Below are positions 9,509 through 62,765 of a DNA stretch of 64,000 nt, one piece after another (within the stretch, counting starts at the first letter, position 1; the number at the start of each line of letters is the position of its first letter). Origin of the DNA: a virus. Below the pieces are notes generated by a model that saw nothing but the letters and a program-made list of their open reading frames with translations, made no database searches and was not told where the DNA came from. The translations under genes and the position numbers were made by a program. The stretch lies in IMG/VR virus record IMGVR_UViG_3300009285_002342, positions 32,001 through 96,000 of that record. The stretch is one strand, 5' to 3'.

Positions 9509-9598
9509 CGCTTCGTAGAATCGCTTAGGTTAAACAATCTATTCCGTATCCATATCTGACTATGCCTTAAAGAGAAAAACGCCTTAAAAACGATTCTA
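9509..9598. repeat. dispersed bipartite palindromic element, copy 1
   Basis: CGCTTCGTAGAATCGCTTAGGTTAAACAATCTA-N35-AAACGCCTTAAAAACGATTCTA. Confidence 0.85.
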
Positions 9599-9603
9599 AA
9601 GCG

Positions 9604-9900
9604 TTGCCGGTCTACCAGATTTTTTCTCAGGCAGACCGGCTTTATTACCTTCAACAAATCTCAAAGTTTTTTAATCTAAACCGATGCAATAGATTATGGG
9701 CTATCGCTCCCTAAAGCTACACAAATCTCCAACGCCCAGGTTCCGAAATTTTCCTAAAGAACGGAGGAGAACGAGGGCATTTAGGCGACGCCCGTATCCG
9801 TCAAAGTTACGGTCCTACGACGAAAAGTTATGGTAGGAAAAGGAGGCAGACGGAATACGGGGAGGTAAATTAGAATCATTTTATGTTTTCCTGTTTTTTA
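9604..9900 (-). ncRNA. putative structured ncRNA with CCUCC motifs
   Basis: No long ORF; downstream of the 9910-9938 promoter; stems 9791-9802/9849-9861 and 9606-9640; three CCTCC motifs. Confidence 0.5.
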
Positions 9901-9909
9901 TTTTTATAT

Positions 9910-9938
9910 ATTATAACCAAGAAAACAAAATTTTTAAA
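9910..9938 (-). promoter_or_regulatory. promoter, class II (TTTAAA-N17-TATAAT)
   Basis: Same architecture at 15437-15465 and 32649-32677. Confidence 0.75.
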
Positions 9939-9956
9939 GAAAATAAATAAAAATTT

Positions 9957-10463
9957 TTAGCGGTTTTTTTTGGAAACAAAATCAAGATATTTCGCGTAAA
10001 GATTGAAAAAAGCGTCTGCATCCATTACAACAACTTCTTTACCTCTACTCCGCTTCATAAACAGAAGCCAATCTGTATCCGGAAGTTGATTTTTCTTCGC
10101 TTGTTCTATCCAAGCAGGTACGGACCAAGATTCCTGACACTTGCACTCCACGGAGAACGGGAACATCTTCTTCGCTATACCGACGAGCTTCACGTCCGTG
10201 CCGCTTTGTCCCATTTCTCGGGACTGCACCAACTCATCTTTACCGCAAGGTATCCCCGTAATTTCGGAAATCTTACGTTCGGCGTAATGTTGTAGATTTC
10301 TGCCTTTCGATTTAGCGGAAGAAACTTGGATTCGAGGTTTAGTCCAGTATTGACACGCCTTCGCTTCTTTACGATTATCATAAGGACAAACTGGAATCGT
10401 CCGTACCTTACAGGTCAATCCTTCTTGATTTTTACAAAATTTTTTCTTCTTTCCCCTTATCAC
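9957..10463 (-). CDS. Holliday junction resolvase-like PD-(D/E)XK nuclease
   Basis: SAKSKGR, GTDV, SVECK, WIEQA. Confidence 0.75.
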   Translation of the reverse strand: MIRGKKKKFCKNQEGLTCKVRTIPVCPYDNRKEAKACQYWTKPRIQVSSAKSKGRNLQHYAERKISEITGIPCGKDELVQSREMGQSGTDVKLVGIAKKMFPFSVECKCQESWSVPAWIEQAKKNQLPDTDWLLFMKRSRGKEVVVMDADAFFNLYAKYLDFVSKKNR

Positions 10464-10464
10464 T

Positions 10465-11212
10465 TTAATTCACCGTAAAAGGTTTTGGTTCTTTTTTCGC
10501 CAATTCTTCTTCCATCTTCGCCATCATCTTTCTTAACGAAACTAAACTTTGCGCTGCATGTAGAATCGCATAAATTTCATCATCGTTAAAGTCAGTCGAA
10601 GTAAGTTTTTCTAAAACTTCTCCGGCAGCCTTCCCTATTTCTATAAATCGTAGTATTTTCATTTAAACCTCCAACACCTTACGCAGTTTTCTTCTTTAAT
10701 GTATCTCGTCGTAAACCGCTTTCCGTTCATTCTATCCGGTCGGCAAGCCTGTAAAATTCTAGCTTGAACCTTACGGCAATCTTCCCCGTTGGTATATATA
10801 GAAAAAGAATTACCAATTTCCATTTCATCGAACGGATAGATGTAAACATGTGGTCTGCCAAATTTCTTATCCGGAATAGGAAATCCGTATTCTATTTTTG
10901 GTTTCTTTGCCATTTTTATTATTCTCTCGCTTTCTTCAATCTTTCCCATGTCTGATTTGTCGGGTTCTTTTCCTCTACCCATTGCCCATCCCGGAAATCG
11001 ATCTTTCCTGCGTATACTTCCCCGGACTTTTCATAAGAAACGACTTCGCCTGGGCAGTCAGTCGTCAACCCTCCTTCGTAAGATTTACAAACCTTACAGA
11101 TTGTAAGTCCGCCATCACAAACGCTCCCTAAAAGAGGATGCTCTTCAACTTCAATTCCTCTTGCCCTAGCATCGGAAACAATATCTTCGAAAGTCCAATA
11201 TTGATGTTCCAT
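10465..11212 (-). CDS. three small hypothetical ORFs (10465-10662, 10659-~10913 small DNA-binding-like, 10919-11212)
   Basis: YPFDEMEIGNSF...RCWR in the middle ORF; operon packing. Confidence 0.55.
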
Positions 11213-11217
11213 TTTTG

Positions 11218-13102: not shown

Positions 13103-13174
13103 TTGTCCCGAATGGATTTGAACCATCGATCTTCGGATTATCGATCCGCTGCTCTACCGCTGAGCTACGGGACA
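13103..13174 (-). tRNA. tRNA-Ile(GAT), no encoded CCA, atypical C33
   Basis: TGTCCCG TA GCTC AGCGGTA GAGC A GCGGA TCGATAA TCCGA AGATC GATGG TTCAAAT CCATT CGGGACA A. Confidence 0.88.
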
Positions 13175-16411: not shown

Positions 16412-17023
16412 TATACACTCCTTCCGTTTTTTAATGTTTCGTTAAGAAGATTAAGAACTCTTTGTTCGTTATATTCCTTGCCTTCTTTTATTAGAAACTT
16501 CCAATGTTTACTACCGCAACAACAATCGCCGAATAAGAAAACACAACCGCAATCCATACACTTTTTTAGATCGGTAACTTTAGGCTTTTTTGCCATCCTA
16601 AATCCCCTTTTCTTCTATAAGCCAAGTTGGGATAGAAACAGTTATATCGTCGCCTTTCTCATAATCCATATCTTCATAGTTAATTTGTGATTTCGGAAGC
16701 CATATCGCATCATCCTCATCCCAATCTACCGGAAGGAAGAGAATTGCTTTTTCGGTTTTGTGTAGAAAATAACCGGAAAATTCTTCTGTTTCTTGTTCTC
16801 TCATTTCGTATTCTCCTCTTTATAATTTTGGTTCCATAATCCCTTCTTCATGCATTTTTTCGAAAAACTTAAAAAGATTTAACAAAAATTTATCATTATC
16901 GTTAACTTTTATATCCCATTGATTAAACAGAAAATCCAACAAATTTGATTCTGGATTTCCAAATTCACCAGATTCCATATAATCAAAACAACTTCCGTAT
17001 TTTTCTTCATATTTAAAACACAT
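16411..17023 (-). CDS. three small hypothetical ORFs (16411-16596, 16598-16804 WLPKSQI-type, 16820-17023)
   Basis: Operon packing. Confidence 0.55.
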
Positions 17024-20000
17024 TATTTCGCATTCTCCTTAAATATTTTAGCGAAAATCGCTATCCCCGTTCGAAACTTTTCTAAATTCTCATTCCGATT
17101 CCGCAAGACCCAAGAAGGATGCCCGCACCAGACTACGTGAGCATTTACCTTTTCTACAAATTCAACTTCCCCTATTAATTTCGTTATTCCTTTTTCCCTG
17201 CCGGTTAGAGCGTAAAGGGCTACGCCGCCGGTAGCTAAAATCAACTTACAATTCATACTACGGATAAACGGAATTACCCATTTATTGAAACAGATATCGG
17301 TTTCTTCGCGGGAAGGAGTTCGGGTTTTCGACGGAAAGCACATAGCGCAATTAGCAACATGCACCTGTCTTCTCGTTATTCCGTGTATCGCTAATTCATC
17401 CCAAAGTAGATTACCGGAATCTCCTACATAACCGACGCCTTGTTCATTTTCGGTAGAATTGTGAACAAAAATACCGTTAACTGCAAAATTATGATATTTT
17501 TCAACTTCCATATCGTAAACATCTTCAACTCCTATACATTCAACAGCAACAATCTTATGATTATCGTCTATAGGTATTTCTTCATCCGGAAATCTTTTTT
17601 TAAACAATTCCTTTATTCTTTCATCCGTAATATTGAAAAAGGAACTATTTTTTCTTCCCATTAAATAATTCCAATAATAATTAGGATCTGTTTGAAATTT
17701 TTTCTTTAAAGTTTTGGCCATTTTCTTTTTACTTTTAGAAATTTGCTCAAGCCTTTCTGCATATATCTTTGGGTCTTTAAGCACTTGGCTCATTTTGCGA
17801 CTCAGCTTTCTTCTGTAATTTAAAGAAGTCATAATTTTAGAATGTTTTTCTCTATGTTTTTCATTAAACATAGGATTATTCAAGATTATATGATATTTTG
17901 CGTGATCGGCTACAGAAAGTGACTCTAAATTGTCAAAACTATCGTTATATCTATTCTCATCTATATGATGACAATCTTCTTTATCTTCTAATTTTCTCCC
18001 TAATTTTTGTTCTAATAAAAATCGAGATTCTATAAACATTTCAGTATTAAATGCGCCAATATCATTATATCGATAACTATGGCGATGAAAAGGTTGCAAA
18101 CTATGCCCAATAGTTAACCCGTCCTTTATAGACAAATAATCAACAGTTTCTTGTTTTCCTTTAAACGGATCTTTTTTATTAATAGAATATCTTAATAGAA
18201 ATGGATGATTTTCTGTAACGTTTATCGAACTGGTTTTTCTGATTCTTTCTTTTCCATTAGCAAAATACCATTCATAAGTAACTTTATATACTTTTTTCCT
18301 ACCTGTTTTCCAAACCCTATTGACTTTTCCTAAAACTAATTTTTTGTTTTCTGTATCAAGCGAATAAACATAAAAATCTTTTTGCCCAACTAAATCTTTA
18401 ATAGGAATCCCCGTTAAAGATTTGGATTTATCTCTAAACGCTGTATCTATCAAAGAATCCCCGGTAATACACCCCGGTGCCTCCGCAAGGATCAAAGCGT
18501 TATAGTTTCCGATAGACGGAAGTACAACTCTTGTCGCTTGTTTTCTTAAACCGCAAAGTTCACATTCTTTCGCTTCCGGAACTATTCCGATTTTCTTTAT
18601 GACCGGCAATTTTATTGATTTTCGAGAAACAGAAAATTGAAAATACTTGTTCCAATCCTCCGGTCCTGATTCCGGAATCGTATCGAACGCTTTTATTTCT
18701 TCCATTAACTGCTCTATCTTAGTGGTTCCTACGGCTTGCCTTTTAAAGAAACCTTTCGCTAATCTTTTTGGTTTCATTAATGCACATTTAGCGGCGGCAG
18801 TTTCCCCTATTCCTTTGATTTCAGAAAATGGCGCATAAAGATCGTTTCCTTTTATTTTCCATTTCTTCGTATCGGATATTCCTATCTTAGGCGATACAAT
18901 ACGGAAGCCTTTCTTTTCCGCTTCCGATATCGTCGCGTCTTTATCTTCGCCATAGGTTAAAGTAGCGCAAAGAAATTCTTTCGGATGATTACATTTAAGA
19001 TAGGCGGTTTGATATGCTAATAAGCCGTAACTCGTAGCGTGCGCTGCATTAAATCCGTACATAGCCCATCCCAAAAGATCTTGCCAAAACTTTTCGGCCT
19101 GTCTTTCATTTAAAGTTTTTAACTTCTTACAGCCTTCAAAAAAGGAAATTCTATATGGTTCAAATTCTTTCGGATCGCGCTTCTTGCCGATAACCTTTAA
19201 AACATTATAACCATCGGTAGCAGAAAAACCCGCTAAGTCAATCATAGACCGCATCATTTGTTCCTGATAGGCCATTACGCCATAGGTTGATTTTGTAATT
19301 TCTTCGTACTTCGGATGTAGCGGAATCCATTCCTCGCCATGTTTTCGCTTAACATATAAATCGGCCATTCCCGATTCTAACGGCCCGGGCCTAGCTAAAG
19401 CGCCGATAGCTACAATATCGTTAAATTCATCGGGTTTCATTTCTTTACATAATTTTTTACAGGCATAACCAGACATTTGAAATATTCCGGCGGTATCGCC
19501 TTCCGAAAGCATTTTATAAACCTTCGGATCGTCTAACGGAATATTCTCAATATCCAAATTATCTATTATCTTAACCGCTTCGTCTATAACGACTACGGTA
19601 CTTAGTTTTAAAACGTCAATTTTTACCAGTCCCGCGTGTTCATCGCAATCCACCATATCCCAGTTTATTACAATATTATCGCTACGGCGAACTAAATTGC
19701 CCCTCGTCCCGTCCCTTAGATCTTCTCCGGAAATTATCAATCCTGCTGGATGTCTTCCACTCGAACGGCATTGTCCTTCTAATTCGCAAGCTAAACGGAG
19801 TTGATCTGGATATCGTACTGCAAACTTTCGCCCCTCTCTTGTACTCTCTGCTGCCGCTTTTATAAGTCCGGTAGCATGTCCTTTCCCCTCTATGTTTTTA
19901 GCAAATTCGTCTATATCATTTTCATCTAACTCAAAGACACGGCCTACGTCTCTAACAGAAGAACGACTTTTCATCCTCATAAACGTACTAATTCCTACGA

Positions 20001-25645: not shown

Positions 25646-25740
25646 CCTTCCTACGCTTCGTAGAATCGCTTAGGTTAAACGATCTATCGCTAACCCATAA
25701 TACCCTACGGGTAAAATATTTGAACGCCTTAAAAACGATT
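25646..25740. repeat. dispersed bipartite palindromic element, copy 2
   Basis: CCTTCCTACGCTTCGTAGAATCGCTTAGGTTAAACGATCTA-N35-GAACGCCTTAAAAACGATT. Confidence 0.88.
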
Positions 25741-25773
25741 AAGCGAAGAATCCGCTTCGTTTCCCTTTTTTCT

Positions 25774-39893: not shown

Positions 39894-39920
39894 CGCTTTT
39901 CCGATATAGGTTAAAAGACG

Positions 39921-40015
39921 TTCCTAGGCTTCGTAGAATCGCTTAGGTTAAACGATCTAAATTTTTCCGATAAAGGGTACGGATAAAATTTTTAAATCGA
40001 TTCTAGGGGATTCTA
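39921..40015. repeat. dispersed bipartite palindromic element, copy 3
   Basis: TTCCTAGGCTTCGTAGAATCGCTTAGGTTAAACGATCTA-N34-AAATCGATTCTAGGGGATTCTA. Confidence 0.85.
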
Positions 40016-40381
40016 CGTAGATTTCTTAAAAATCGGTTCGTACCATTCCGGTTTCTTCGTGATTAAAACCATACGATAAAACCAGTGAGTTGCTTCGTCT
40101 AAGACCCAAGGCGGGTTAATTGGTGAATTAGGAATTTTGTAAGGTAGAAGTTTCGTTCGTATTCCATCAGCTAAGACTGCTCTAAGGCCGACATTGTAAT
40201 AATCTTTTAGGGAATCTACGTATCCTGCCCATCGCTTTACGTTCGGATGCCTAGACCATCCCGTAGTTCCTTCTAAGGCGCTTACGGATTGCATCGCCTC
40301 TAAGACCTGTTTCCATTTCCGCTTTGGATCTAAGACGGCATAACATTGTTCATAATCTTCGTATGGAATAAAATGTTGCAT
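40013..40381 (-). CDS. pyrimidine-dimer DNA glycosylase / endonuclease V-like protein
   Basis: MQ.F.PY....LD.KR..KQ..EA.Q...HP...W.GY. Confidence 0.7.
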   Translation of the reverse strand: MQHFIPYEDYEQCYAVLDPKRKWKQVLEAMQSVSALEGTTGWSRHPNVKRWAGYVDSLKDYYNVGLRAVLADGIRTKLLPYKIPNSPINPPWVLDEATHWFYRMVLITKKPEWYEPIFKKST

Positions 40382-43995: not shown

Positions 43996-44000
43996 GAATT

Positions 44001-46546: not shown

Positions 46547-46620
46547 GAAAATTTTTAAAATATTTTAATTAATAAAAACAGATAGTTATAAAAATACTTC
46601 GGTAGAATAACCTAAGCCCC

Positions 46621-46708
46621 TTCCTAGGCGTTTTCCCTAAAAACCATATAGGGATACGCCTTACGGGTAGATCGTTTAACGTAGGGGATTCTACGAAGAC
46701 GTAGAAGG
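46621..46708. repeat. dispersed bipartite palindromic element, copy 4 (inverted)
   Basis: Reverse complement reads CCTTCTACGTCTTCGTAGAATCCCCTACGTTAAACGATCTA-N34-AAACGCCTAGGAA. Confidence 0.8.
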
Positions 46709-46741
46709 GGAATAAAGTGAGACAGGATAGTAACGGGAACA

Positions 46742-47259: not shown

Positions 47260-47260
47260 T

Positions 47261-49790: not shown

Positions 49791-49791
49791 T

Positions 49792-50574: not shown

Positions 50575-51258
50575 AGCGCTAATAAGGCTTTGCCGAAAGT
50601 TTTTAAAACTTTCTTTGGATCGTTCACGTCTACATAAGCATCTATTTGTGCGTAGGTTAGTTTATCTAATTGCCGCCTTATCCTTAGTGCATTTATATAC
50701 TCTTGTCTTGAAGGTTTAACTGTTTCGTCGATTTCCGGAAGTTGAACCTGATTCATTTCCGAAGCCTTTTTTGACCATTTTGTTTGTTTTGTTTCCTTGT
50801 CGATAATAATTTCGGTTTTGTCTTCAGTCCAAATTAAATCATAAAGGTTTTCCTTTAATCCGTCAGCTTTCCCGTTAGAACCTCGATAATTTTTTCCTTG
50901 CTTTACGCAATCACGAATGAATTGTAGGATTTCATCGGAACCTTTATTTTTAATTATTAAGTTCATTTTTCCATATTCTCATTTGTTTTTCGAAGATTTC
51001 AATTTCTTCCCAAAAAGGAATTTGCCTTTTTGAAGTTTTATCTCCATAATTTTTTATTGCTTCTCGGAAAATAGAAAGACGATTTTTCTTTATCTTCAAT
51101 TCTTTTGTTAAACCGTATTTTTTAATATTATTTTCCAAGCTTTTATAATAGTAATTATATAATTTTTGCGCTTCTATAGTTCTTTTGTGAAAAAACCATT
51201 TATCTTCATTGTGAGCGCAAGATATAAAAAGAAAGATTATTAGAATGTACCATTTCAT
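50544..51258 (-). CDS. two hypothetical ORFs (50544-50966; lipoprotein-like 50950-51258)
   Basis: FISC lipobox-like sequence in the second. Confidence 0.55.
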
Positions 51259-54200
51259 TATACATCCTGCGCAGTTACTACGTTACCGGTTCCTGCGTCA
51301 GAGATTGAAGTACCTACTCGATATGTAATATTATCCCCGCCTTGGTTATTATCACAAGTTCCATCCAAGGCGATTCCTATATCCTTTGCATTGTTATTCA
51401 CCATATCTATATTGTTTCCTTGGATAATGTTCCTATCGGAACCTTGAAATCTTATACCGTACCGATTATAAGTGGCATCCGCGTTATCGACCACAATATT
51501 GTTCTGAGATATAATGCTATCATTAAGACCGGGTATCGATATTCCTTCGCAAAGCTGAACGGCCATATTAATATCGATAAATATATCATTTTTAGTTACT
51601 TTGCCCGTAGAGAGATTAAGGATTATCCCATACTGCAAATAATCCCCTGTCCGGGTATGAATGATGCTCACCTGGTTTTCTGAACAAATAACACCCCTCC
51701 CATTTTGCGTTATAATTCCATATATATAATAAGATGCGCTGTCATTGATTGACTTTAATGTATTATTAATTATTAGGGACTGAGGATCAACGTAAGTTTC
51801 CTGATAAGACTTGATACCTATATACTTGAAATTCTTAACTGTATTGCCAATAATTTTAGACGAAATTGTACTCGCGTCAAGGCGAATATCAACGCCTTTG
51901 TTTTCTGGAGAGTCTACGGTATTTGCAAAAATATTTATTTCGCTAATTTTATAGATGTAAATCGGGATACTGCCATCTATAAAGCTACAGTCACTTACTC
52001 TAATTATAGAGTTACCTAAATACCCATATACGCCATAATCTCCACTTGACGAAGCGCCTATTACTCCATCATCTACAAGATTAAAGGTTATTTGCCGAAC
52101 CAAAATTAATGCCGTATTTTGATTTGCTGTATCGCCATAGATATAGATCATTTTAGAATAAGCAGATGTATTCTGACTTTCAAAAGTAAAGTCTGAAAAT
52201 GAAAGCCGTTTTGTTAAATTATGTAAAGTAAAACCGTCGCTTCCGGCAGTATTTTTTAGAATTACCCCCCCTTGCGATTCACCGATAATCTCGATATCTC
52301 GATCTACAAGAAATATCCCACCAGAAGGTAAGGTATATTCACCATTCAAAAGGTAAATTCCGTTATGCCTACTTTCAGATAAAGCATTAATAGCAGTTTG
52401 AATGGAAGTGTATTGCCCCTGATTTGTATTTGGCCCGACAATTAGATTCGGTCTTCCCCATACATCAAATCCCGAAGACGCTAAAGACTCGGAAGATAAA
52501 GGTCCGCTTAACGGTGGTTCCCACATTTTTATATTTGTATCTTCTTCGTTTACGGTCAAGGCGGAAGGATCTAAATCTGCCCAATTATCTAACGAATCAG
52601 AGAGCCGAGTACAAGAAAACCCGATAGAAGCATCCCGATTAATTCGCATAGAATCAATTAAAATATCGTAAGATCCACCATAATCGGCATGATTTAATGT
52701 TATAACATCATTCGGTTGTAACGCTAACAAGGTAGACTTCCCGTTAAACCTAATCGTAGCGTCCGGAAGTAGTTTCCGTTGATAATGTAGAGTTCCTAAT
52801 TTTTGTGCATGAATTGAATTTTGTACGAACGGAAGTTCTAAAACTTCGTTACTAATTTTGGTTCTTGCTGTTTTAGCAGGGACTAAAATTTGAAGAAATT
52901 TATCTTGCGGTTCATCCGTTTCTTGCCAAGTAACATAACCACTATCCGAATTTTCTTCGTCGAATATTTCCGAATATTCAAAACTACTTTCCGCTGTTTC
53001 GCCACCTTGCGTTAAAACATCGGCCTTAGTCAAGGTTTTTTTAGATGTAGAAGAAAGGGGATAAAGCCCTAAAGTATTTTCAGAAATCAGAACGGAATTA
53101 CACATACTTTGTAACCTAGCGATTATCTTTTCCCTAGGTTCTTTATACCAGAACGCCCCGTTCCACGTTAACCCCCATCCCGAATATACCGTTTCTGCGT
53201 CTGTAAAGATTGTCGAACCAATAATAGATGTAGAAACCCCTAAGTTTTTTACAACATTCTTAATCACGTTAGCAGGATTAGTCATAGACGAAGTATCTGA
53301 ACGCATAAACTTCGTAGGTATATCCAGAAAATAATCCCCTTGTTTCCAAACTCCCGGTGCATCCGCAGTACCGTCATTATCTACGTCCATAATCATAGGA
53401 TGCATTACCCGCCAATTTACCGAAGTCGATTCCGCTTTAGTGTATTGCGAAAATGTATACCCGGTAGAAGTCCAAATACTTTTTCGTCCCCATTCCCTCG
53501 GGGATCGAACTTTTTGTAAAGTATAGGTTAAAGACGTACTTCCTAAAACATACGCTCGACTGCCTTGCGTTACCGTTACGGAATCACCTACTGCTTCCGC
53601 TACGAAACCAGCATTTTCGGCGTATTCCATTTCCGTAGAAGATCTAGCTAAAACAATAGCGCTTTGATTATTCGCCGTAGACGTAAAACCGGAAATAGGC
53701 GTAGTCCGTCCAACTTCAAAATTATCGAAAGCGGAAGAAGCCGTTCTGAGTTTACATCGACTCCCGTTACTAGAAGCTACGGCGGAAATAGCGGTAGAAG
53801 TTAATGAGGTAAACGTAGGAATATAAACGCTTCTTAAAGGAACGTAAGCTACCCCATAAGGTTCCGGAACACAAACATTATCGTCTTTAACTTGCGCAGA
53901 ATTCGGAAAAATATCTTTAACTAAACGAGTATTCGGATAATCGCCTTTAAGGTATCTTTGTAAATAATCTACGCAATGAAACCTTAAAGCTTGCATCTGT
54001 GGTTCCGCCCTACGAACAATAAAACGGAATTGTCTTATAACTGCTTCGTTCGTATAATCGCTCATTACGAGTTGTAGCAATAAATCTGCGTCGGTAAAAT
54101 CAGTAGCGGTTAAAGTATTCGCAGGATTCGTTACAAGAAAGGTAAGTTCGTTAGGCGCTTGTAGCCCCATTTCGGATTGATTACGATTTAATTCTACTCC

Positions 54201-54371
54201 GTTAAACGAATCGGGAATAATCCGGAAGGTATAGGCGTTTCCTCCGTAACTTCTAGTCACCGTAGACCACCGATACGTCGTCGCCCCGGTAGTAACTACA
54301 GTAAATCCCCAAAAGATTTTTTTGGATACAGCGGAAACTATCGTTTGTTGGGTTGCGTCAAATGTTATCAT
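51258..54371 (-). CDS. large tail/baseplate protein with C-terminal right-handed beta-helix (receptor-binding/depolymerase-like)
   Basis: P..YG and LQPNDVITL tail motifs; YTSIQTAIN, NGEY, I.G then I..N.I repeats. Confidence 0.8.
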   Translation of the reverse strand: MITFDATQQTIVSAVSKKIFWGFTVVTTGATTYRWSTVTRSYGGNAYTFRIIPDSFNGVELNRNQSEMGLQAPNELTFLVTNPANTLTATDFTDADLLLQLVMSDYTNEAVIRQFRFIVRRAEPQMQALRFHCVDYLQRYLKGDYPNTRLVKDIFPNSAQVKDDNVCVPEPYGVAYVPLRSVYIPTFTSLTSTAISAVASSNGSRCKLRTASSAFDNFEVGRTTPISGFTSTANNQSAIVLARSSTEMEYAENAGFVAEAVGDSVTVTQGSRAYVLGSTSLTYTLQKVRSPREWGRKSIWTSTGYTFSQYTKAESTSVNWRVMHPMIMDVDNDGTADAPGVWKQGDYFLDIPTKFMRSDTSSMTNPANVIKNVVKNLGVSTSIIGSTIFTDAETVYSGWGLTWNGAFWYKEPREKIIARLQSMCNSVLISENTLGLYPLSSTSKKTLTKADVLTQGGETAESSFEYSEIFDEENSDSGYVTWQETDEPQDKFLQILVPAKTARTKISNEVLELPFVQNSIHAQKLGTLHYQRKLLPDATIRFNGKSTLLALQPNDVITLNHADYGGSYDILIDSMRINRDASIGFSCTRLSDSLDNWADLDPSALTVNEEDTNIKMWEPPLSGPLSSESLASSGFDVWGRPNLIVGPNTNQGQYTSIQTAINALSESRHNGIYLLNGEYTLPSGGIFLVDRDIEIIGESQGGVILKNTAGSDGFTLHNLTKRLSFSDFTFESQNTSAYSKMIYIYGDTANQNTALILVRQITFNLVDDGVIGASSSGDYGVYGYLGNSIIRVSDCSFIDGSIPIYIYKISEINIFANTVDSPENKGVDIRLDASTISSKIIGNTVKNFKYIGIKSYQETYVDPQSLIINNTLKSINDSASYYIYGIITQNGRGVICSENQVSIIHTRTGDYLQYGIILNLSTGKVTKNDIFIDINMAVQLCEGISIPGLNDSIISQNNIVVDNADATYNRYGIRFQGSDRNIIQGNNIDMVNNNAKDIGIALDGTCDNNQGGDNITYRVGTSISDAGTGNVVTAQDV

Positions 54372-54372
54372 A

Positions 54373-54470
54373 CCTTCCTACGCTTCGTAGAATCCCCTAC
54401 GTTAAACGATCTATTCTTAACCCTAGTTACCCTACGTTCGAAAAATTTAAACGCCTTAAAAACGATTCTA
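54373..54470. repeat. dispersed bipartite palindromic element, copy 5
   Basis: CCTTCCTACGCTTCGTAGAATCCCCTACGTTAAACGATCTA-N35-AAACGCCTTAAAAACGATTCTA. Confidence 0.9.
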
Positions 54471-54884
54471 CGTCGTTCCTAAGATTTTAAGTTTCATTTG
54501 CGGGACGCCTTGTATTCCTAAAGCGTAAGGTCCGGGCCTCATCGTTCGGGTAACATCGTCGGCGAACCTAGCACAATATGTATGCCCGTCGCCATAATTT
54601 AATTTAAAACTTCGGGCGATTCCGTTACCTTTTCCGGTAGACATCCAATAATCGAAAATTGTACCAATATTAGCAGCCATCTCGGTAGGCCATCTTAGGT
54701 TAACATACGCTATCGGAGAATTAGAAAAACTAATTCTTTCTTCGCTTCCGTCGTCCCCATAACGAACCATTTGGTTTTTTGTAACCATTTCTTCTATGAC
54801 TTCCTGCGGACTTAATTGTAAAGCCGAAGAAGTAAAGTTTACGGTAGCTGCGGAAAGATAGTCGAACAGCTCTTTTGACGCCAA
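54468..54884 (-). CDS. distal tail protein (probable)
   Basis: Position after the tape measure; DDGSEER..., GNG.ARSF, Y.ARF. Confidence 0.6.
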   Translation of the reverse strand: MASKELFDYLSAATVNFTSSALQLSPQEVIEEMVTKNQMVRYGDDGSEERISFSNSPIAYVNLRWPTEMAANIGTIFDYWMSTGKGNGIARSFKLNYGDGHTYCARFADDVTRTMRPGPYALGIQGVPQMKLKILGTT

Positions 54885-54885
54885 T

Positions 54886-57800
54886 TTATTGCTCCATTAT
54901 TCTACGCATTTTTTTAATGGTTTGTGGATTCTTCGAAGCTTTGTCCATAACTATAGAAGCAATAACCTGTCCGTCTATAGCGATTTGAACTGGTTGATTG
55001 CTATTTTGCGGTAAGGCTTGTAGAATATATTTAGCTATGGATTTTCCGATTTCGTCCGGATCAATACCGATAGATTTGAGGAAATTTTCGTTTCTAGGAT
55101 TACTGGATGCAGGGATTGCCCATTCCGATCCGTTTTCTCCGAAGATAGCGGGAACACCAGGATTGAAACCACCTAAATCGTATCCACGCATTTGCCGAAG
55201 TTGCTCTATCGTATAATTAACCCCTTGAGCGTGAGTCATCCCTAGGTCAAACAAGATGTCGCTACGCCTATTTCCCGCAGATTGATCTTGAGGGGTTATA
55301 ACTGGGGTATAGGTTGAAGTGAAATTCCATCCAGAATCACCAGTAGCACTTACATTATTTACAGGAGGAGAATAAGGAACAGTCACGGTAACTGGATCGG
55401 TATAGGTCGGTGTAAAATCCCATCCAGAATCACCAGTAGCCCCTACTACATTAATTGGGGCAGGAACATACCCGACTGTGGTTCCGGAATCCGTAGTCAT
55501 ACTTCCTGGCAAAATAGGGCTAACGGGCTGCCCCGTAAGATTTAAAAGCGAAGTATTAATCAAAGAAAGATAATTAACCATATCTGTTGTATTATCTGCG
55601 ATTTGTTGCTGAAGAAGATCCTGTGTATCTTCTGCTAATCCCCTTACGTCCATTACGTCGTTAATTATTGCTCTCGCTACTTCTTTGTAATCTTCGGAAT
55701 ATCCACCCATAAAACCAGCATATTCTCTAGCGAAAGATTCAAATTTCGATATCGCCCCAGGTAAATCTTCTGGCGCTGCATTCCTAGCTGCATTTAACAG
55801 GTCTGTATATTTCGTCCCGTAATATTCCGCGCTTTGTACCGGAGACAAACTTCCTCCGGTTAATTCGTCGATTAAAGCAGTTAGAGATTCTTTGCTTTGT
55901 TCAAGAGAATTAATGATTTGTTCATTTTGCTGATTTTGTTTTTCTGTAAGACTTTGGATTTCGCCCATTACCGAATAAATTTCGTTCGAAATATCTAGCG
56001 AATCTGCCCAATATGTAAGGGAATTTTTATCCAAATTCAAAAGTTGAGTTGCTAATCCGCCGGCGTATCCTAAATATTCTTCGGTCCCCCAGTCTTTTCT
56101 TTGATAACCTTGAATATCCGCCTTTACTGCGCCCGCCAACTCAATCATTCCGAACATTCCGCCTAATAGCGTTTGCCCTAAAGAGGCTAATTGTTGCAAT
56201 AATTCGGAAGGTTCCATTCCGATAGATCCAGCGTAAGCGGTAAATTGTTCACGATTAGCCGGATTTAAAGCTGCTGTTAACCAGGAAGCGGTATTAGAAG
56301 GCGTAATTTGCTCCATACCGATTCCGGTTTGTGCCGAAAAAAGACTAGCTTGAATAGCAGCTGAATATTGAGGCAGGAAACCTTCTAAAATAGAAGCTTG
56401 CGTTTTTAGAAGATCGTTAAGTTTTTTAACAGACTCTTCTTCCGCAGTAGTTATGTTTGCTATTGCTACGGCCCTACGCTCCTCGACCCATGTAATGTAT
56501 TCTTCCGCCGCACCCATTTTGCGAAGTTGTTCAATATAACCATCAAATTGTTGATTGACATTGTAAACTTCTTGGTCATACTTTGTTAAAGCCCCAGTAG
56601 CCACCATAATTGAATGATAAATACTCTCTACAGTTGTTATCGCATCTTGTGTTGTCGTGTTAAATACCGCTAAAGCATTAGAAAGAGCGATAATTTCTTC
56701 TGCGGTAAAACCTCCTTCTTCGTATTGATGAAATAAACCGCCCAAAGCTTCATATCCGCCGGAAACAGTACGGGTGTCACGGACAAAATCTGGAGCGTTT
56801 TGCAAAGCGTCAAAAGCGCCTTGTCCTAAAGCAAGGGCCATTTGTTGAGAAGCAGCATCCCAATACGCAGTACCAATTTGCGCTACAATCTCTTCTATAC
56901 TTCTTCCACTAGCCCCACCTTCGAAAAGTGTAACGTTGAGACCTTCTAAACGATCTTTAAAATCATCGAAAATATCATAAGGAAGGGCAGCTTCCGCCCA
57001 GTCCTCTATACTGCTTCTTACCGTTGTAGCGAAATCGTCTATAGCGGTTTCTAATTCTAAATAGAAACCCTCCTGATCATCTGTGCCTGTTCGATAAAAA
57101 TCCCAAGATTCAGGAGTACTTCGAAAACCTTCTACGCCAGCATCCGGATTACCGATACCGGACCCGCCATATTGATATGCATCCGGAACAAAGTCAGGAA
57201 AACGTGCACTATCGCCATAACCAAGGGAAAGTTCGGGAATATAACGGAATTTATCTTTATTAAAATGTTCAAGAATTCCAGCAAAAACCGCAACGGCACC
57301 GGCAGCCATAAGGAACGGACCGGCAACCGCTCCGATAGAAGTTGCGCTATATCCACCGGCCGCACTCGCTCCCGCGCCTTCGCCTAGTCCTCCGGCCATA
57401 GCGGAAGTATTATAACCAACGCCAGCACCCGTACCGCCAAACATCTTTTTAACCCAAGCCCCAACGCTTGCTGCTGCGCTAATGTTCCCTACAGCATTCC
57501 CAACCGCTCCTCCGGTTAATCCTCCTAAAAAGTCATAAACAATCGGGACAATAATCTTTTCTGCTGCTGCCTTAGCTGCCATTTCGGCTAACGCTTTAGC
57601 GAAAAGATCGGTCATCTTTTCAAGCATATCGGTCCAACCATCAATATTCCCTTTATAAATATCGAAGAAAAAATCAGCGGTAAAATCCGTTACCCTTTTT
57701 GTAAAATGTCGATTTTCTTCTTCCTGTTTTTTTAATGCCTTTTTCTCAGCTTCCACCCTTTCGTCGATAAACTCAAATTCTTCTTTTAATGCTTTTTCTA

Positions 57801-59808
57801 ATCTGTCTTGCCTATATTTTTCTTCTTCTGCGTTAATTATTGCTAATGCGTCTTTATGATATTGAACGATAAGTTTTTGTGTTTCTTCGTTCGCACCGGC
57901 TAATATTTTAAATCCTTCAACTTCTTTTTCTAAAGTTTCTCTACGACGATTAAATTGGTTCACGTCTAACTTAATCATCATTTTTTCGTAATTATCGTAA
58001 GACTTTTTCTCTGCTTCCGCTCTTTCATCGATAAACTCAAATTCTTTCTTTAAAGCCTTTTCAAGTCGCTCATTAAGTGACTTCTCAAAATCTTGATTCA
58101 TTAAAGCTAAGGCGGCTTTATGCGCTTCTTTAACTTTGTCTCCTAATAACGGATATTGTTCTTTATATTTTTCCGCCATTTTATATGCTTCTTCAAACGA
58201 AGCGTTTACCTCCGATTCTTCGAAAGCGAACGGATCAAGTTTAAATTTATTAACTATGCTTTGTAATTCACGCATCTTTCGTTCAAGACGCTGTTGCTCT
58301 TCCCAGTCTAGTTTAGGCGTTCTTAAAGGATTAATATAAGTTTCTTCTTGCCCGGCACCGGCCATCGCTTCTATTTGTTCGTAAAGTTCTTTTCTTTCTT
58401 CGGCAACTTTTACTTCCTCGTTTTCTAAACGATAGATCGTCCGTTTAGCTCGTTCAATTTCATTTTCTAAACGAAGTAATTCTTGCAGATCTTTTTTTAA
58501 AGTATCATTAATATGAATACTTTTTAATCCATCCATTTTTGGTTCTAATGCATTTTCTCTATACCATTTTATGCTTTCGTTAAGACGTTTATGTGCCATT
58601 TCTAAATCTAAAAGATCGTTTTTTACAATTTGGATTTGATTAGGAGGATAATAATATGTTTCCCAATCCTTTTCTACCTTTCCGGGTTTTGTAAGCGCAT
58701 CTAAAGAATCTTGCCATTTTGGGTACATTCCCTTAGCGGTCATATCCGCCCAGTTTTGTAAATGAACACCAAAATCATGCGCTTCTTTAGCGATGGCGGT
58801 AAAAATCGCTGTGTAACCAGCGCCTTTTAGCCCAGCCTTACCGAAAAGGACTACCCCTACTATCCCTCCTTTTAAAATCCACGGATAATCATCTAGGAAT
58901 TTTACCGAAGACCGAACCGCATTTTCTGTTTTTTCTACCCATTCGGTAATATTTTCTTTCATTAACTCATTATTTGCTTCCCTCCACTCTTTCGTCGCTT
59001 TTACAATTTCCTTTACAGCGGTAACGAAAAGTTTCATCCCCCCCGAATCCATAAAGGCTAGGCGAAGGTAATCCATTTCGTTTTTCAAACGATTTATTTC
59101 TGCATACGCTGCCTTAGCCGCTTCCGGAACGGCTTCCCCGTAAGCCCTAGTAAACTCACGAGCTAAACGGGGGAGCATATCTTCGGAAAGAATTTTACCT
59201 TGCCGAACTTGTTCAATCATTTGTTCCGTAGTTAGCCCCATCGCCTTCGCGGCTCTAGCGAAAGCGCCTGGAATATGATCGCCTAACTGTCGCCGTAATT
59301 CTTCCATAGCCACTACGCCCTTAGACATCATCTGCTCAAGTGCGTATAAGGCCATTTTAGTTTTTTCTTGTGTAAGACCGAGAACAACGGAAGCTTCGTT
59401 AACCGAAGTGAAAATCTTTCTAGTTTGTTCCATCGTAAGATTAGTAACGCGGGCAGCGGCGGCGAAGGTTTGAAAGGATTTGACTTGATCTCGGTAAACT
59501 AATCCTAATCTATCGGATTCTTGACGGAGCCATTTAATCTGCTGTTGACCTTCGACGGCAGATTCAAAAACAGCATTCATACTTCTCGACATTCGGTCGA
59601 AAGTAACGCCGGTTTCTATAAGACTTTTCCCCAATTCACGTAACCCCCATCCTCCAAAGGCGGTTACTGCTAAACGTTTTAAATTAGTAAAACCGGCGGA
59701 AAGATCTTCTGTAGATTTACGAAGGGCCGCTAAATCCTTTCGCGCTTGCTGCATTCCTGCGGTAAATTCAGCCGAATGAATACCGATTCTTAATAATAAT
59801 GGATTCAT
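54886..59808 (-). CDS. tape measure protein
   Basis: QMMSKGVVAMEELRRQLGDHIPGA tape-measure domain; 1640 aa helical. Confidence 0.92.
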   Translation of the reverse strand: MNPLLLRIGIHSAEFTAGMQQARKDLAALRKSTEDLSAGFTNLKRLAVTAFGGWGLRELGKSLIETGVTFDRMSRSMNAVFESAVEGQQQIKWLRQESDRLGLVYRDQVKSFQTFAAAARVTNLTMEQTRKIFTSVNEASVVLGLTQEKTKMALYALEQMMSKGVVAMEELRRQLGDHIPGAFARAAKAMGLTTEQMIEQVRQGKILSEDMLPRLAREFTRAYGEAVPEAAKAAYAEINRLKNEMDYLRLAFMDSGGMKLFVTAVKEIVKATKEWREANNELMKENITEWVEKTENAVRSSVKFLDDYPWILKGGIVGVVLFGKAGLKGAGYTAIFTAIAKEAHDFGVHLQNWADMTAKGMYPKWQDSLDALTKPGKVEKDWETYYYPPNQIQIVKNDLLDLEMAHKRLNESIKWYRENALEPKMDGLKSIHINDTLKKDLQELLRLENEIERAKRTIYRLENEEVKVAEERKELYEQIEAMAGAGQEETYINPLRTPKLDWEEQQRLERKMRELQSIVNKFKLDPFAFEESEVNASFEEAYKMAEKYKEQYPLLGDKVKEAHKAALALMNQDFEKSLNERLEKALKKEFEFIDERAEAEKKSYDNYEKMMIKLDVNQFNRRRETLEKEVEGFKILAGANEETQKLIVQYHKDALAIINAEEEKYRQDRLEKALKEEFEFIDERVEAEKKALKKQEEENRHFTKRVTDFTADFFFDIYKGNIDGWTDMLEKMTDLFAKALAEMAAKAAAEKIIVPIVYDFLGGLTGGAVGNAVGNISAAASVGAWVKKMFGGTGAGVGYNTSAMAGGLGEGAGASAAGGYSATSIGAVAGPFLMAAGAVAVFAGILEHFNKDKFRYIPELSLGYGDSARFPDFVPDAYQYGGSGIGNPDAGVEGFRSTPESWDFYRTGTDDQEGFYLELETAIDDFATTVRSSIEDWAEAALPYDIFDDFKDRLEGLNVTLFEGGASGRSIEEIVAQIGTAYWDAASQQMALALGQGAFDALQNAPDFVRDTRTVSGGYEALGGLFHQYEEGGFTAEEIIALSNALAVFNTTTQDAITTVESIYHSIMVATGALTKYDQEVYNVNQQFDGYIEQLRKMGAAEEYITWVEERRAVAIANITTAEEESVKKLNDLLKTQASILEGFLPQYSAAIQASLFSAQTGIGMEQITPSNTASWLTAALNPANREQFTAYAGSIGMEPSELLQQLASLGQTLLGGMFGMIELAGAVKADIQGYQRKDWGTEEYLGYAGGLATQLLNLDKNSLTYWADSLDISNEIYSVMGEIQSLTEKQNQQNEQIINSLEQSKESLTALIDELTGGSLSPVQSAEYYGTKYTDLLNAARNAAPEDLPGAISKFESFAREYAGFMGGYSEDYKEVARAIINDVMDVRGLAEDTQDLLQQQIADNTTDMVNYLSLINTSLLNLTGQPVSPILPGSMTTDSGTTVGYVPAPINVVGATGDSGWDFTPTYTDPVTVTVPYSPPVNNVSATGDSGWNFTSTYTPVITPQDQSAGNRRSDILFDLGMTHAQGVNYTIEQLRQMRGYDLGGFNPGVPAIFGENGSEWAIPASSNPRNENFLKSIGIDPDEIGKSIAKYILQALPQNSNQPVQIAIDGQVIASIVMDKASKNPQTIKKMRRIMEQ

Positions 59809-60361: not shown

Positions 60362-60387
60362 TTTCTTTCCTCCTTTTCGATTTTTGA

Positions 60388-60816
60388 TTAAGTCGCGGAA
60401 GTCCTACGGGTTAAAACTCCATCGCCTTGGAACGTAACAGACAACGTGGCCAAACTTCCTACAGCCCCCGCAATCGGCGTATAGGAAGGAAGCAGAACGT
60501 TTCCTGTCCATCGTGGATTAACAGCAGTAGAAGCGGAAGATTTAGCTCTAGTTGTAATCCACTTAGCAGTAGACCCGATATAAGGCCAAAGTGTAGCATC
60601 TACCTTTGAGGCTGCAAGATCCTGGTTAAATTCTACTGTTACGGAAAAATCTTTAAGCCCGGAAATTCTTCGTCTGCCCGAAGAACCCATAGCGGTTTTG
60701 TCCAGCATTTCCGCATTCGCCGTTACCGTTACTGACCGTACATAGGAACTGAGATTTACAACAGCTGCCGTAGTTCCGATCTTAAAGACGCCTTTGTTAA
60801 ACATGAATTCTGCCAT
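60388..60816 (-). CDS. tail tube protein paralog 3 (core only)
   Basis: LDKTAMGS.GRRRISGLKDFSVTVEFNQD. Confidence 0.8.
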   Translation of the reverse strand: MAEFMFNKGVFKIGTTAAVVNLSSYVRSVTVTANAEMLDKTAMGSSGRRRISGLKDFSVTVEFNQDLAASKVDATLWPYIGSTAKWITTRAKSSASTAVNPRWTGNVLLPSYTPIAGAVGSLATLSVTFQGDGVLTRRTSAT

Positions 60817-60832
60817 TTTCTTTTCTCCTTAG

Positions 60833-61576
60833 TTATTGGATTGCTAATGCCAAAACAGCGGTCATTTTACTATTTGTAGACCCGGTAGAATCAATTCTCC
60901 ACCGATACCAAGTATGGACAGTACTTCCGTTCGTAGACTTAAATTGGGCACTTACCCTCGTAGACCATCCTACGGCGTCCATATTAATTGCCGTAGTTAG
61001 GGAACCAAAGCCGGATGAACTGGAAGTTTGAACCTTAGCTCGAATCGTATGGGTTCCACCGGAAGACGAAATTCCCCTTACGTGCATTATTCCGTAAAGC
61101 TTTTTCGTAGTTCCTTTTACGCCTAGATTTTGCGGTGTTGCGGAAAGGGCGGTGGAAAGTCCTGTGCCGGCTTGCGCTATTACGCCTCTTACAGCTTCGT
61201 CGTCTCCGTAACAGGCGAAGTTAAAGCGCATCATTTCCCCTATTCTACCGGCCGGCGAATATTCGGAAAGAACATCTTGCCCCGAATAGCAGATCGCACC
61301 TAGCGAAGAACCGTGCGCTACCGTAATTACCGAAGCGGTAGAACCAAGTTTAGAGAAAATATGCGGATCGTTTTTTTGCGTAGTGGCAGCGTTATAAAAA
61401 CCGCCGCCGGTGACTTGAAAATCCTTTAACCCGGCCATTCTACGTCTGCCCGAAGATCCGAAGACAGTTTTATCTAATACGTCTGCGGATTGAGTTACCG
61501 TCACTTCGTTCATATCTCCAGAAAGGTCCGCACCGCCGAAAAGGATTTTTGCGTTTTTTAAGGCAAATTCACCCAT
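60833..61576 (-). CDS. tail tube protein paralog 2 (core + C-terminal domain)
   Basis: LDKTVFGS.GRRRMAGLKDF. Confidence 0.75.
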   Translation of the reverse strand: MGEFALKNAKILFGGADLSGDMNEVTVTQSADVLDKTVFGSSGRRRMAGLKDFQVTGGGFYNAATTQKNDPHIFSKLGSTASVITVAHGSSLGAICYSGQDVLSEYSPAGRIGEMMRFNFACYGDDEAVRGVIAQAGTGLSTALSATPQNLGVKGTTKKLYGIMHVRGISSSGGTHTIRAKVQTSSSSGFGSLTTAINMDAVGWSTRVSAQFKSTNGSTVHTWYRWRIDSTGSTNSKMTAVLALAIQ

Positions 61577-61588
61577 TTTCTTTTTCCT

Positions 61589-62308
61589 TTACTGACTTAA
61601 TCTTACGTTAGCATACCCTGCGGTATAATTGCCTGTTTTTATTCCAATTCTATAATAAGTTCCGTCTTCTGGTTCAATTCCTACGGTTTCGGTATTCGTC
61701 GAGAAAGAAGAAACATCATTTTCGCTTCCGGTAGAACCAAATTTTCTTTGCACAGTAACACTTCCTTCCCAAGTGGTAGATACAGCAACAGAAGCGTTAA
61801 ATAGATCGTAAAGTTTACCCCATCTTGTCCAAGAATCCCCTTCCGTACATCTAGCGGTTAACGACGTTCCTTCATATGCAATCGGCGTAGAAGATCTTAT
61901 TAAAACCCCATCACCAATAATTTCCGCATTACTTATTGCTAAAGTCCCTATAGAACCAGAAATAGGAACGTATGAACGAAGTAAGAATTTACCGTAATAT
62001 CTTGGATTCCCATCATTAACCTGACTAGAGTTTAATTTAACCGAAAGCCAATTTGCCGTACTACCTAACATATTCCAAAGTGAAATATCGGGACCGCTTA
62101 ATGCAAAAGATTGGTTTAATATAAGTTTAGAATTCCAATCTTTCAATCCTGAAATTCTTTTTCTTCCAAAACTACCGCAAGCAGTTTTATCTAAAGATTC
62201 TGAACGATAAGTTAACGTTATTTCTTTAACAAAATTTGAAATATTAGCAGGATGAACAGACGAACCTAATTTAATTTCTGCATTTTTTAAAGTGAATTTT
62301 CCACCCAT
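61589..62308 (-). CDS. tail tube protein paralog 1 (core + different C-terminal domain)
   Basis: LDKTACGS.GRKRISGLKDW. Confidence 0.75.
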   Translation of the reverse strand: MGGKFTLKNAEIKLGSSVHPANISNFVKEITLTYRSESLDKTACGSFGRKRISGLKDWNSKLILNQSFALSGPDISLWNMLGSTANWLSVKLNSSQVNDGNPRYYGKFLLRSYVPISGSIGTLAISNAEIIGDGVLIRSSTPIAYEGTSLTARCTEGDSWTRWGKLYDLFNASVAVSTTWEGSVTVQRKFGSTGSENDVSSFSTNTETVGIEPEDGTYYRIGIKTGNYTAGYANVRLSQ

Positions 62309-62309
62309 A

Positions 62310-62717
62310 TTAACACGTAGTCCAAACTATGAAATCTTGTGCGCGATGATAAGTTATTTTATCGGTTTCCGGATTAATATCGGGAACGTCATATTTACCG
62401 TCGAAAAATATCCTTTGTACTTTAAAATTGCTGCTTCCTAACGTTCCTGTTTTGTCTCTTAAAATTGTTTTTATTTGCGTAGAAACCGATACAACATTAG
62501 AATACGAAGTTGACCAAGAACTGATTTGCATTCGAAACATTCGTATTTTCGGATCGGCAATCATCGTATGCACCGGGACTTCGCTTATTTCCTGATAAGT
62601 GATAAACGGTTTCCTAGCACCTTGCGGCGCTACTATCGGATAAATCCGATTACTGGTTAAAGCGGTAATAGCGGTAGTTGCTTTAATTTGCGAATATATA
62701 GCTTCGGATAGATCCAA
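62310..62717 (-). CDS. tail terminator/completion protein (DUF3168-like)
   Basis: RIYP..APQ...PFITY...RMQISSW. Confidence 0.8.
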   Translation of the reverse strand: MDLSEAIYSQIKATTAITALTSNRIYPIVAPQGARKPFITYQEISEVPVHTMIADPKIRMFRMQISSWSTSYSNVVSVSTQIKTILRDKTGTLGSSNFKVQRIFFDGKYDVPDINPETDKITYHRAQDFIVWTTC

Positions 62718-62723
62718 GGATTA

Positions 62724-62765
62724 CCTTCTACGCTTCGCAGAACCGTTTTTAAGACGTTTAAATTT
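62724..62765. repeat. dispersed element, copy 6 (rearranged half copy)
   Basis: CCTTCTACGCTTCG followed by the reverse complement of the right arm (CAGAACCGTTTTTAAGACGTTTAAATT). Confidence 0.65.

Follow-up and report, generated by a model that had tools for sequence, protein, structure and literature searches.

Dispersed palindromic repeats at the gene junctions of an uncultured groundwater phage: a candidate inserted element of putative function

Dispersed palindromic repeats are common in bacteria and rare in phages. A 64,000-nt window of an uncultured phage from groundwater (positions 32001-96000 of the 115,125-bp contig IMGVR_UViG_3300009285_002342, which is classed as linear, with an estimated completeness of ~84%) contains such a repeat, a unit of ~104 bp with two inverted arms around a core, and raises the question of what this unit is and why it recurs at gene junctions. 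With about a dozen copies, the phage provides a natural case of a compact viral genome that tolerates or uses repeat DNA, each copy being set, whichever way it faces, precisely into the space from one gene's stop codon to the ribosome-binding site of the next. Judged by its sequence, the element appears to be of the palindromic intergenic repeat kind, with a putative function. The reading tentatively preferred here is that it is an inserted junction element resembling miniature transposable elements with inverted repeats (MITEs) or repetitive extragenic palindromic (REP) sequences, lineage-specific, non-coding and palindromic.

An initial annotation of the window had recorded six such sites, and each of them reads as it was described. 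The left arm of the plus strand as first read (CTTCGTAGAATC...GTTAAACGATCTA) is termed here arm A and the right arm (AAACGCCTTAAAAACGATTCTA) arm B, and the element is written in the order arm B, core, arm A; hence copies c1, c2, c3 and c5 are on the minus strand and c4 is on the plus strand. The arm words occur far above chance. With at most two mismatches, CTTCGTAGAATC is matched 21 times (5 exact) against 7.4 +/- 2.8 expected and GTTAAACGATCTA 8 times against 3.0 expected, while the 22-nt arm B with at most three mismatches is matched 3 times against 0.02 expected; none of 100 shuffles reached the observed count for any of the three. The description of the arms as conserved repeats holds to this extent, though the right arm is less uniform than was implied, because its 22 nt are exact in just 2 copies (9577-9598 and 54449-54470).

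A search profile made from the five full copies of the window was run with nhmmer over the entire contig, and the family proved larger than had been noted, with 10 full-length and 2 partial copies, the window's share being 5 full copies and 1 half copy. Nine of the full copies were recovered at E-values from 1.7e-29 to 9.7e-17, at contig positions 9736, 17500, 31528, 41499 (c1), 57645 (c2), 71918 (c3), 78608 (c4), 86372 (c5) and 112483. A diverged tenth full copy spans contig 565-670, and a fragment with arm B only lies near 9263-9310 (nhmmer E only 3.1). Within the window, the four minus-strand copies are c1 (9501..9604; 104 nt; profile E 9.3e-27), c2 (25646..25749; 104 nt; E 1.7e-29), c3 (39919..40021; 103 nt; E 1e-23) and c5 (54373..54476; 104 nt; E 9.6e-28). 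Copy c4 (46606..46708; 103 nt; E 3.7e-24) is on the plus strand, inverted with respect to its flanking minus-strand genes. The half copy c6, consisting of arm B and its outer end, lies on the plus strand at 62724..62774 (E 6.4e-4), with the profile match covering 62734-62774 and profile positions 4-44.

Aligned length, taken over a set of 12 copies that includes two from a related contig, L058, is 103-104 nt in 9 of the 12 and 91, 106 and 106 nt in the remaining three. The arm motifs are 39-41 nt apart in 10 of 12 copies and 28 and 43 nt apart in the other two; in run X3, which contains a strain ~90% identical to the phage, c1 is 3 nt longer in its core. The core of fixed length (34-35 bp) that was first proposed is thus approximately constant, and the spacing of the arms is better described as constrained than as fixed. 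Imperfect inverted repeats, 14-23 bp in length, form the ends, and there is no open reading frame (ORF) inside. Read outwards, arm A ends in CGATTCTACGAAGCGTAGGAAGG, and arm B ends in CGATTAGGCGAAGCGTAGAAAG in reversed copies or in CGATTCTACG... in c3 and c5. Since the word GTAGAATC faces inwards in both arms and a word like a Shine-Dalgarno (SD) sequence, GGAAGG or GAAAG, faces outwards at most ends, the unit is usable either way round. Arm A holds a local imperfect hairpin (GATCGTTTA-ACC-TAAGCGATT) followed by CTACGAAGC, and a small hairpin (TACCC-GTA-GGGTA) is present in many cores. Arms and cores form mosaic subfamilies, and there are arm-only copies besides. Conservation is one-sided, a property missed by the initial annotation: pairs of copies are on average 0.90 identical in arm A (30 nt), 0.70 in arm B (19 nt) and 0.51 in the core, with the arm A consensus matched exactly by 4 of 12 copies.

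On a longest-ORF map of the contig, 160 of 187 ORFs are on the minus strand, with plus-strand genes at 837-9130, and every copy is intergenic. Arm A adjoins the downstream gene in half of the full copies, namely c1, c2, c3, c5 and the copy at 565-670 (before plus-strand genes); the other five (9736, 17500, 31528, c4 and 112483) are reversed. Copies outside the window, which the initial annotation did not see, are mostly inverted relative to genes. Nine full copies lie within the minus-strand array. In three of them the TAG of the inward GTAGAATC serves as stop codon for the upstream ORF (in arm B for c3 and c5, in arm A for 17500), and in five the next start codon lies 2-14 nt past the element.

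ORF coordinates and the junctions themselves bear out the overlaps with SD sequences and stop codons that had been noted earlier. Arm A of c1 (~9510-9539) adjoins the start (ATG 9494) of an 82-aa gene at 9246-9494(-), the start codon lying 14 nt past the end of the arm. In c2, arm A (25655-25684) is followed by AGGAAGG and then by ATG 25643 of a Mom-like gene (phrog_1384), and the same AGGAAGG separates arm A of c5 (54382-54411) from ATG 54371 of a 1037-aa gene. Arm B of c5 holds the TAG stop of the gene at 54468-54884(-); arm B of c3, in which TAGAATC is duplicated, holds that of the gene at 40013-40381(-), and a primase start (39893) lies 33 nt past arm A of the same copy. The half copy c6 overlaps the stop of the gene at 62758-63330(-) and provides the SD of a tail-terminator gene, with ...GCGAAGCGTAGAAGG upstream of the TTG start (62717). 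After arm A of the reversed copies, there is no plus-strand ORF of at least 20 codons except a 27-codon frame after c4 (arm A ~46670-46699); this frame, at window 46717-46800 (+), has a GTG start and a strong SD (GAAGGGG) directly after the arm.

Searches for relatives place the family in a single lineage. Exact-pattern scans with arm A and with paired ends found no true match in viral_contigs, the 5 chance matches all lying in coding DNA, and a scan of 241 million metagenome records found arm A elsewhere only on L058 (1,014 bp). This contig is 88-90% identical to positions 111.8-112.7 kb of the phage and carries two copies of the element, both reversed. In the copy orthologous to 112483, arm A is the same at 30 of 30 positions, and arm B and the core differ at ~10 positions; the second copy occupies the place of a TnpB gene in the phage contig. 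A 98-aa gene beside arm B in the phage is missing from L058, in which a 100-aa gene is flanked by the two copies; gene content between the two contigs changes exactly at element borders. Should the repeats be exchange points, as this one comparison hints, they would help to explain how gene cassettes move in this phage group. The 100-aa gene was considered as a partner gene of the element and rejected, as its product has no match to a nuclease or DNA-binding family (best match TelK_muzzle, E 8.7e-4, below cut-off). The TnpB gene of the phage (contig 110645-111796, +) encodes OrfB_IS605 and Cas12f1-like TNB domains and stands where L058 has an element copy; the start of TnpB in L058 (963-1014) is on the other strand, behind a small ORF and a GTTATATTTCCCC motif, and the two phages accordingly differ in where TnpB lies and which way it points.

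More distant relatives were reached via a 512-aa Ro60-like protein encoded beside the copy at 112483, which gave 62 loci in total. None of the records of the five best relatives (Ro60-like protein 48-55% identical) has a match to the element profile at E <= 10, and two of these five that were compared with themselves as whole records have no dispersed repeat family, G001 showing a single repeat region and G002 three neighbouring ones in a cluster, as against 11 regions in the phage contig. Eight loci of these relatives were inspected, and in 4 of them the homologue of the 100-aa gene begins within ~10-25 nt of the end of the Ro60-like gene (judged by reading in L071 and L087, with tblastn confirmation for G001). 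The element sits between these same two genes in the phage contig and L058. This is the single comparable junction, as synteny is lost at the other sites; protein-based searches for relatives returned none for the primase and, for the Mom-like protein, only relatives at <=45% identity. On the strength of these searches, the element family is apparently lineage-specific.

Inverted ends, both orientations, relics, mosaic subfamilies, presence in one lineage and a junction that is tight elsewhere together argue for a MITE/REP-like element. Of the three options raised by the initial annotation (a wrapping or organising site, a packaging or recombination signal, and a MITE/REP-like element), this is the best fit. 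The element would have entered the phage lineage and then spread to gene junctions, being inserted into the tight junctions of a long one-directional gene array. Its build would keep damage low whichever way it lies: towards the upstream gene, one arm would offer an in-frame-capable TAG (GTAGAATC), and towards the downstream gene, the opposite end would present the Shine-Dalgarno sequence CGAAGCGTAGGAAGG a few bases ahead of the start codon. The ends may have been adapted or selected to supply both. In operon RNA, the two arms could pair into a long imperfect hairpin at the junction, which, like REP and Correia elements, may alter how the RNA decays, is processed or is read through at that point. 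As much the best preserved part of the element, arm A may be the recognition site of a protein that copies or maintains the unit; the conserved 30 nt predict a sequence-specific partner.

Several findings weigh against this reading. Exact-pattern scans of 185,579 species genomes (genome_contigs) found no copy and hence no donor or host family. Past the ends as placed by conservation, the flanks share no direct repeat, and no target-site duplication (2-10 bp in MITEs) could be defined; placing the true ends would take an empty site in a close relative. In the contig, at ~84% completeness, Pfam and PHROGs scans over 135 ORFs found no transposase for inverted-repeat ends, only TnpB (OrfB_IS605), and the flanks of TnpB gave no match to the element profile in the contig search; a palindromic element derived from IS605/TnpB was ruled out on this ground. 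A search of the contig for the Y1/RAYT transposase family PF01797 gave 0 matches at E <= 0.01 (in the control, 6 of 14 genomes match). There is no sign of recent movement, because presence and orientation are unchanged in both available comparisons (the copy at 112483 against L058, and c1 in run X3), and no close relative shows a clean empty site. Over window 39500-59400, the Logan contigs of runs X1 and X3 break off at the repeats. Between the contig and L058, all 30 positions of arm A are the same, as against 88-90% identity in flanking coding DNA; this indicates a sequence-specific partner and perhaps a role that serves the phage, beyond selfish spread alone. Lastly, arm B drifts with no compensating change in arm A, so that selection is not acting to keep a hairpin between the arms.

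How the element stands beside known mobile repeats bears on the same question. In prokaryotes, MITEs are defined, in the available part of one study, by terminal inverted repeats of at least 10-15 bp and a non-coding interior of 50-800 bp (PMC11602168); the element has imperfect inverted ends of 14-23 bp, a length of 103-104 nt in 9 of 12 copies and no internal ORF. The same portion of that study reports viral MITEs to be rare, with 1,726 elements in 671 sequences (0.01% of sequences), against which 10-12 copies in one phage are unusual (PMC11602168). The Correia elements of Neisseria, as described in the accessible sections of their source, carry promoters at either or both ends, bind IHF and undergo RNase III cleavage or protection (PMC2649163). 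With MITEs and Correia elements, the phage repeat shares a small non-coding unit, terminal inverted repeats, dispersed intergenic positions in either orientation, subfamilies and truncated copies, and, as far as those sections of the Correia source go, end signals that act on neighbouring genes (PMC2649163). In contrast to either, no target duplication, no cognate transposase and no copy among the bacterial genomes scanned was found for it; unlike Correia elements, its ends carry a stop codon and an SD sequence in place of promoter halves, and one of its arms is far more conserved. It resembles the REP, BIME and REPIN doublets in having two inverted imperfect palindromes around a spacer, a length of ~100 bp and a location outside genes. 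REPs carry a GTAG tag, and each arm of the element has GTAG next to its palindrome. In contrast to REP/REPIN systems with RAYT, there is no Y1/RAYT gene in the contig, and the copies are in a phage, set against gene starts and provided with an SD.

The arrangement of the gene-facing copies also recalls a cassette of terminator, promoter and ribosome-binding site, in which the arm B hairpin would end the upstream transcript, a promoter in the core would restart transcription and arm A would form a leader with an SD; such a cassette would double as a homologous exchange point that shuffles genes. PeSL cassettes of this type are reportedly known from T4-type phages through the work of Arbiol et al. 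in 2010. In c1, c2 and c5, terminator-like hairpins with a T-run overlap arm B, and an SD and start follow directly past arm A. A promoter consensus scan of these three gene-facing copies yielded a gene-strand match in one only, c2, where TTCAAA-16-TATTAT (9/12) lies in the core, with none in c1 or c5. Two proteins of the phage are sigma-like, with matches to Sigma70_r2 and Sigma70_r4. As far as the available text on PeSLs goes, these are likewise repeated intergenic cassettes with a stem-loop, an SD and the next gene start, and they lie next to indels between close relatives, as the elements do where gene content changes between L058 and the phage (PMC4122927). That text also has PeSLs built round a sigma-70-type promoter and facing the gene (PMC4122927), unlike the elements, of which half (5 of the 10 full ones) are reversed, pointing away from the downstream gene, and in which a promoter is not evident. 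Apart from the 27-aa frame after c4, no plus-strand ORF follows the copies that face away, and the -10-like word of most cores is without its final T. The terminator-like hairpins make such a cassette possible for the gene-facing copies and leave the reversed half unexplained; as an account of the whole family it is unlikely.

The evident promoter repeats of the phage are, moreover, of a different family. Listing of intergenic gaps and word searches gave six copies of a sigma-70-like repeat on the gene (minus) strand, ...TTCTTGACT or TTCTTTAAAA...TTTTCTTGGTTATAAT (in outline, TTGACT/TTTAAA...GGTTATAAT), ahead of replication-region genes at contig 31482, 41918, 47445, 64657, 74008 and 78471, the last five being window positions 9918, 15445, 32657, 42008 and 46471. 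A GTTATAATTCCCCT... motif occurs in three copies on the gene strand ahead of structural genes (contig 103588, 108018 and 110537). At the reversed copies 31528 and c4, the sigma-70-like repeat sits between the element and the next gene; on the gene strand at c4, the element is followed by two such repeats and then by the sigma-factor-like gene at 45897-46409(-). The element was accordingly ruled out as the standard promoter of the phage, which has these separate families and a gene-strand match in c2 alone. Promoters of the extracytoplasmic function (ECF), sigma-54 and single-subunit-polymerase types in arm A were dropped on inspection by eye against consensus features. An invertible promoter switch was also set aside, as no recombinase is encoded and orientation is the same in two comparisons, though a host enzyme could still act. 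The two sigma-like proteins are short: that of 170 aa (window 45897-46409, -) has Sigma70 region 2 only and that of 122 aa (contig 10526-10894, -) region 4 only, and they may be a phage late sigma factor or a split sigma factor.

A further phage repeat invites comparison. The SAS and ESAS of Cluster K mycobacteriophages, as covered by the available part of their description, are repeats with an SD near the starts of unrelated genes and with imperfect inverted repeats upstream, as in the element (PMC3203893). The SAS measures 13 bp and the ESAS repeats 17 bp with 4-13 bp between them; they keep nearly one orientation and are conserved across subclusters, and the same part of the source gives their function as unknown (PMC3203893). 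The element differs from them in its 104-bp unit, its 40-bp core, its occurrence in both orientations and the presence of relatives without it. None of the systems compared combines a 104-bp unit with inverted ends, an inward stop, an outward SD, one strongly conserved arm and free orientation. Literature searches found no description of this element, which does not establish its absence from print.

The strong conservation of one arm raises the possibility that the element is primarily a DNA site for a phage or host DNA-binding protein, with arm A as the operator and arm B as a weaker second site ~55 bp away. The arm pair would then mark the junctions of gene modules for transcription, replication or DNA organisation, the organising site of the initial annotation being one form of the idea. 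A site in double-stranded DNA has no sense strand and would tolerate both orientations. What is conserved is sequence and not pairing (arm A at 0.90, no compensatory pairs and no strand preference), the arm spacing is held to 39-41 nt in 10 of 12 copies, and the copy shared by the contig and L058 has ~10 changes outside arm A and none in its 30 positions. No candidate binding protein was identified, however, and half copies keep arm B, not arm A. Helical phasing of the arms was dropped, their ATCG words being ~55-56 bp apart, which is not a whole number of helical turns. Relatives at ~50% identity have nothing comparable, which would be unusual for a core regulatory design. Such a site is a possible but doubtful alternative to an inserted MITE/REP-like element.

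The imperfect inverted ends also suggest an element that works in the operon transcript, as an RNase III site, a barrier to 3' exonucleases or a docking hairpin for the Ro60-like protein. With about ten dispersed junctions occupied, the elements recall the RNase III sites of phage T7. Folding of both strands gives a terminal stem between the arms in most copies, and in a unit of ~104 nt the two ends form a stem, internal loop and stem on either strand. Single-sequence folds have z-scores of -1.3 to -2.6, with means that are modest and nearly equal for the two strands (-2.06 for the element strand, -1.92 for the complement). On average, the gene-sense strand folds at -25.2 kcal/mol and the antisense strand at -23.1 kcal/mol, a gap equal to that between the element strand and its complement; folding thus picks no strand. 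The RNAalifold consensus of 12 copies retains only the local hairpin of arm A on the element strand (11 pairs, 6 one-sided changes and 6 broken cells) and a 7-pair local hairpin on the other, with 0 compensatory changes on either. A conserved RNA structure was ruled out on these grounds, and pairing between the arms is not the conserved trait, because arm B varies without matching changes in arm A. A known RNA family was likewise ruled out: at gathering scores, Rfam found only a tRNA in the entire window and no match to the element, and two copies searched at E <= 10 gave only the chance-level matches STnc240 (E 2.8) and aspC (E 1.2), with no YrlA, Y_RNA or other family. A role at the level of RNA is decidedly unlikely to be what the family is for.

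The docking of the Ro60-like protein deserves separate mention, because one copy abuts the stop codon of its gene. The 512-aa protein (contig 112582-114120, -; locus L066:16582-18120) has no Pfam match above cut-offs. Its predicted fold, at a mean predicted local distance difference test score of 85.5, is a Ro60/TROVE ring with a vWA domain. Foldseek matched it over its full length to TROVE/Ro60 structures (9kop at E 1.2e-10, 9l5y, 1yvp and 2nvo) at TM-scores of 0.5-0.6, the matches comprising Ro60 of the Thermus phage phiLo (9l5y), Xenopus and human Ro60 and Deinococcus Rsr (2nvo). It has hundreds of metagenome homologues at ~50% identity, in addition to the 62 viral-contig loci, and none of them carries a name.

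Y RNAs measure 80-130 nt, with two ends that form a long stem and a large internal loop (PMC4201824), and the element fits in length and has a terminal stem in most folds, but its z-scores are only about -2 and there is no covariation. The accessible part of a study of phiLo has its Y-like RNAs chosen by a stem-bulge-stem form with CGAA (PMC12135203), and a CGAA word also stands beside the internal loop of the element. The bacterial Y RNA motif GNCGAAN0-1G (PMC4201824) is present in only 2 of 12 copies, where it occupies the 3' side instead of a place close to the 5' end. A better candidate for a Y RNA lies upstream of the Ro60-like gene, where a full-length, sub-threshold match to YrlA (L066:18428-18547, -; 36.5 bits against a gathering score of 69; E 1.1e-5) stands beside tRNA-Gln, tRNA-Tyr, tRNA-Met and a fourth tRNA-like match (L066:18152-18936). 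A small ORF at contig 114437-114625 is probably not a gene, as it overlaps the YrlA-like match. The boldest form of this idea is that the elements are working RNA modules, with CGAA hairpins at about ten operon junctions on which the Ro60-like protein docks, the PNPase of the host being held off or redirected and the lifetime of the mRNA set in this way; if true, these would be the first Ro60 sites embedded in messenger RNAs across a genome. It is weakened by the motif, found in 2 of 12 copies only and there on the wrong side, by the failure of the covariance model and by the better Y RNA candidate, and it is very improbable.

Two groups of explanations find still less in the data. A gyrase-binding, packaging or recombination signal was suggested by the initial annotation, with which the elements have only a general resemblance in their two arms around a ~40-bp core; no recombinase or invertase is encoded according to the Pfam and PHROGs scans, and no computed result favours a wrapping site of the gyrase type or a packaging signal. 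A solitary mimic of a CRISPR repeat would account for arm A as a repeat-sized unit (30 nt, a hairpin with a 9-nt tail). It has no match to a CRISPR-DR or other family in Rfam, and neither an array nor an occurrence of arm A was found in the 241 million metagenome records, L058 aside, or in the species genomes. Taken together, these explanations are the most improbable of those considered.

Around the elements, the contig encodes a DnaE-type polymerase, clamp, clamp loader, primase, helicases and a Mom-like protein, together with tape measure and tail proteins, capsid, portal, terminase and TnpB, as befits a tailed phage. The DnaE-type polymerase (1417 aa; window 17023-21276, -) has matches to an HNH endonuclease at residues ~1061-1150, which suggests an inserted nuclease or an intein-like segment. 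A tRNA gene at window 13103-13174 (-; Rfam 66.3 bits) lies in the replication and recombination region. Runs of an AT-rich unit of ~20 nt (...TTTACTAAATACGATTTATTTTCTGAA...) occur at contig ~2400-2700, in the early region, and at 9400-9560, where they lie in a 701-bp gap at which the plus- and minus-strand gene arrays converge and have an iteron-like look.

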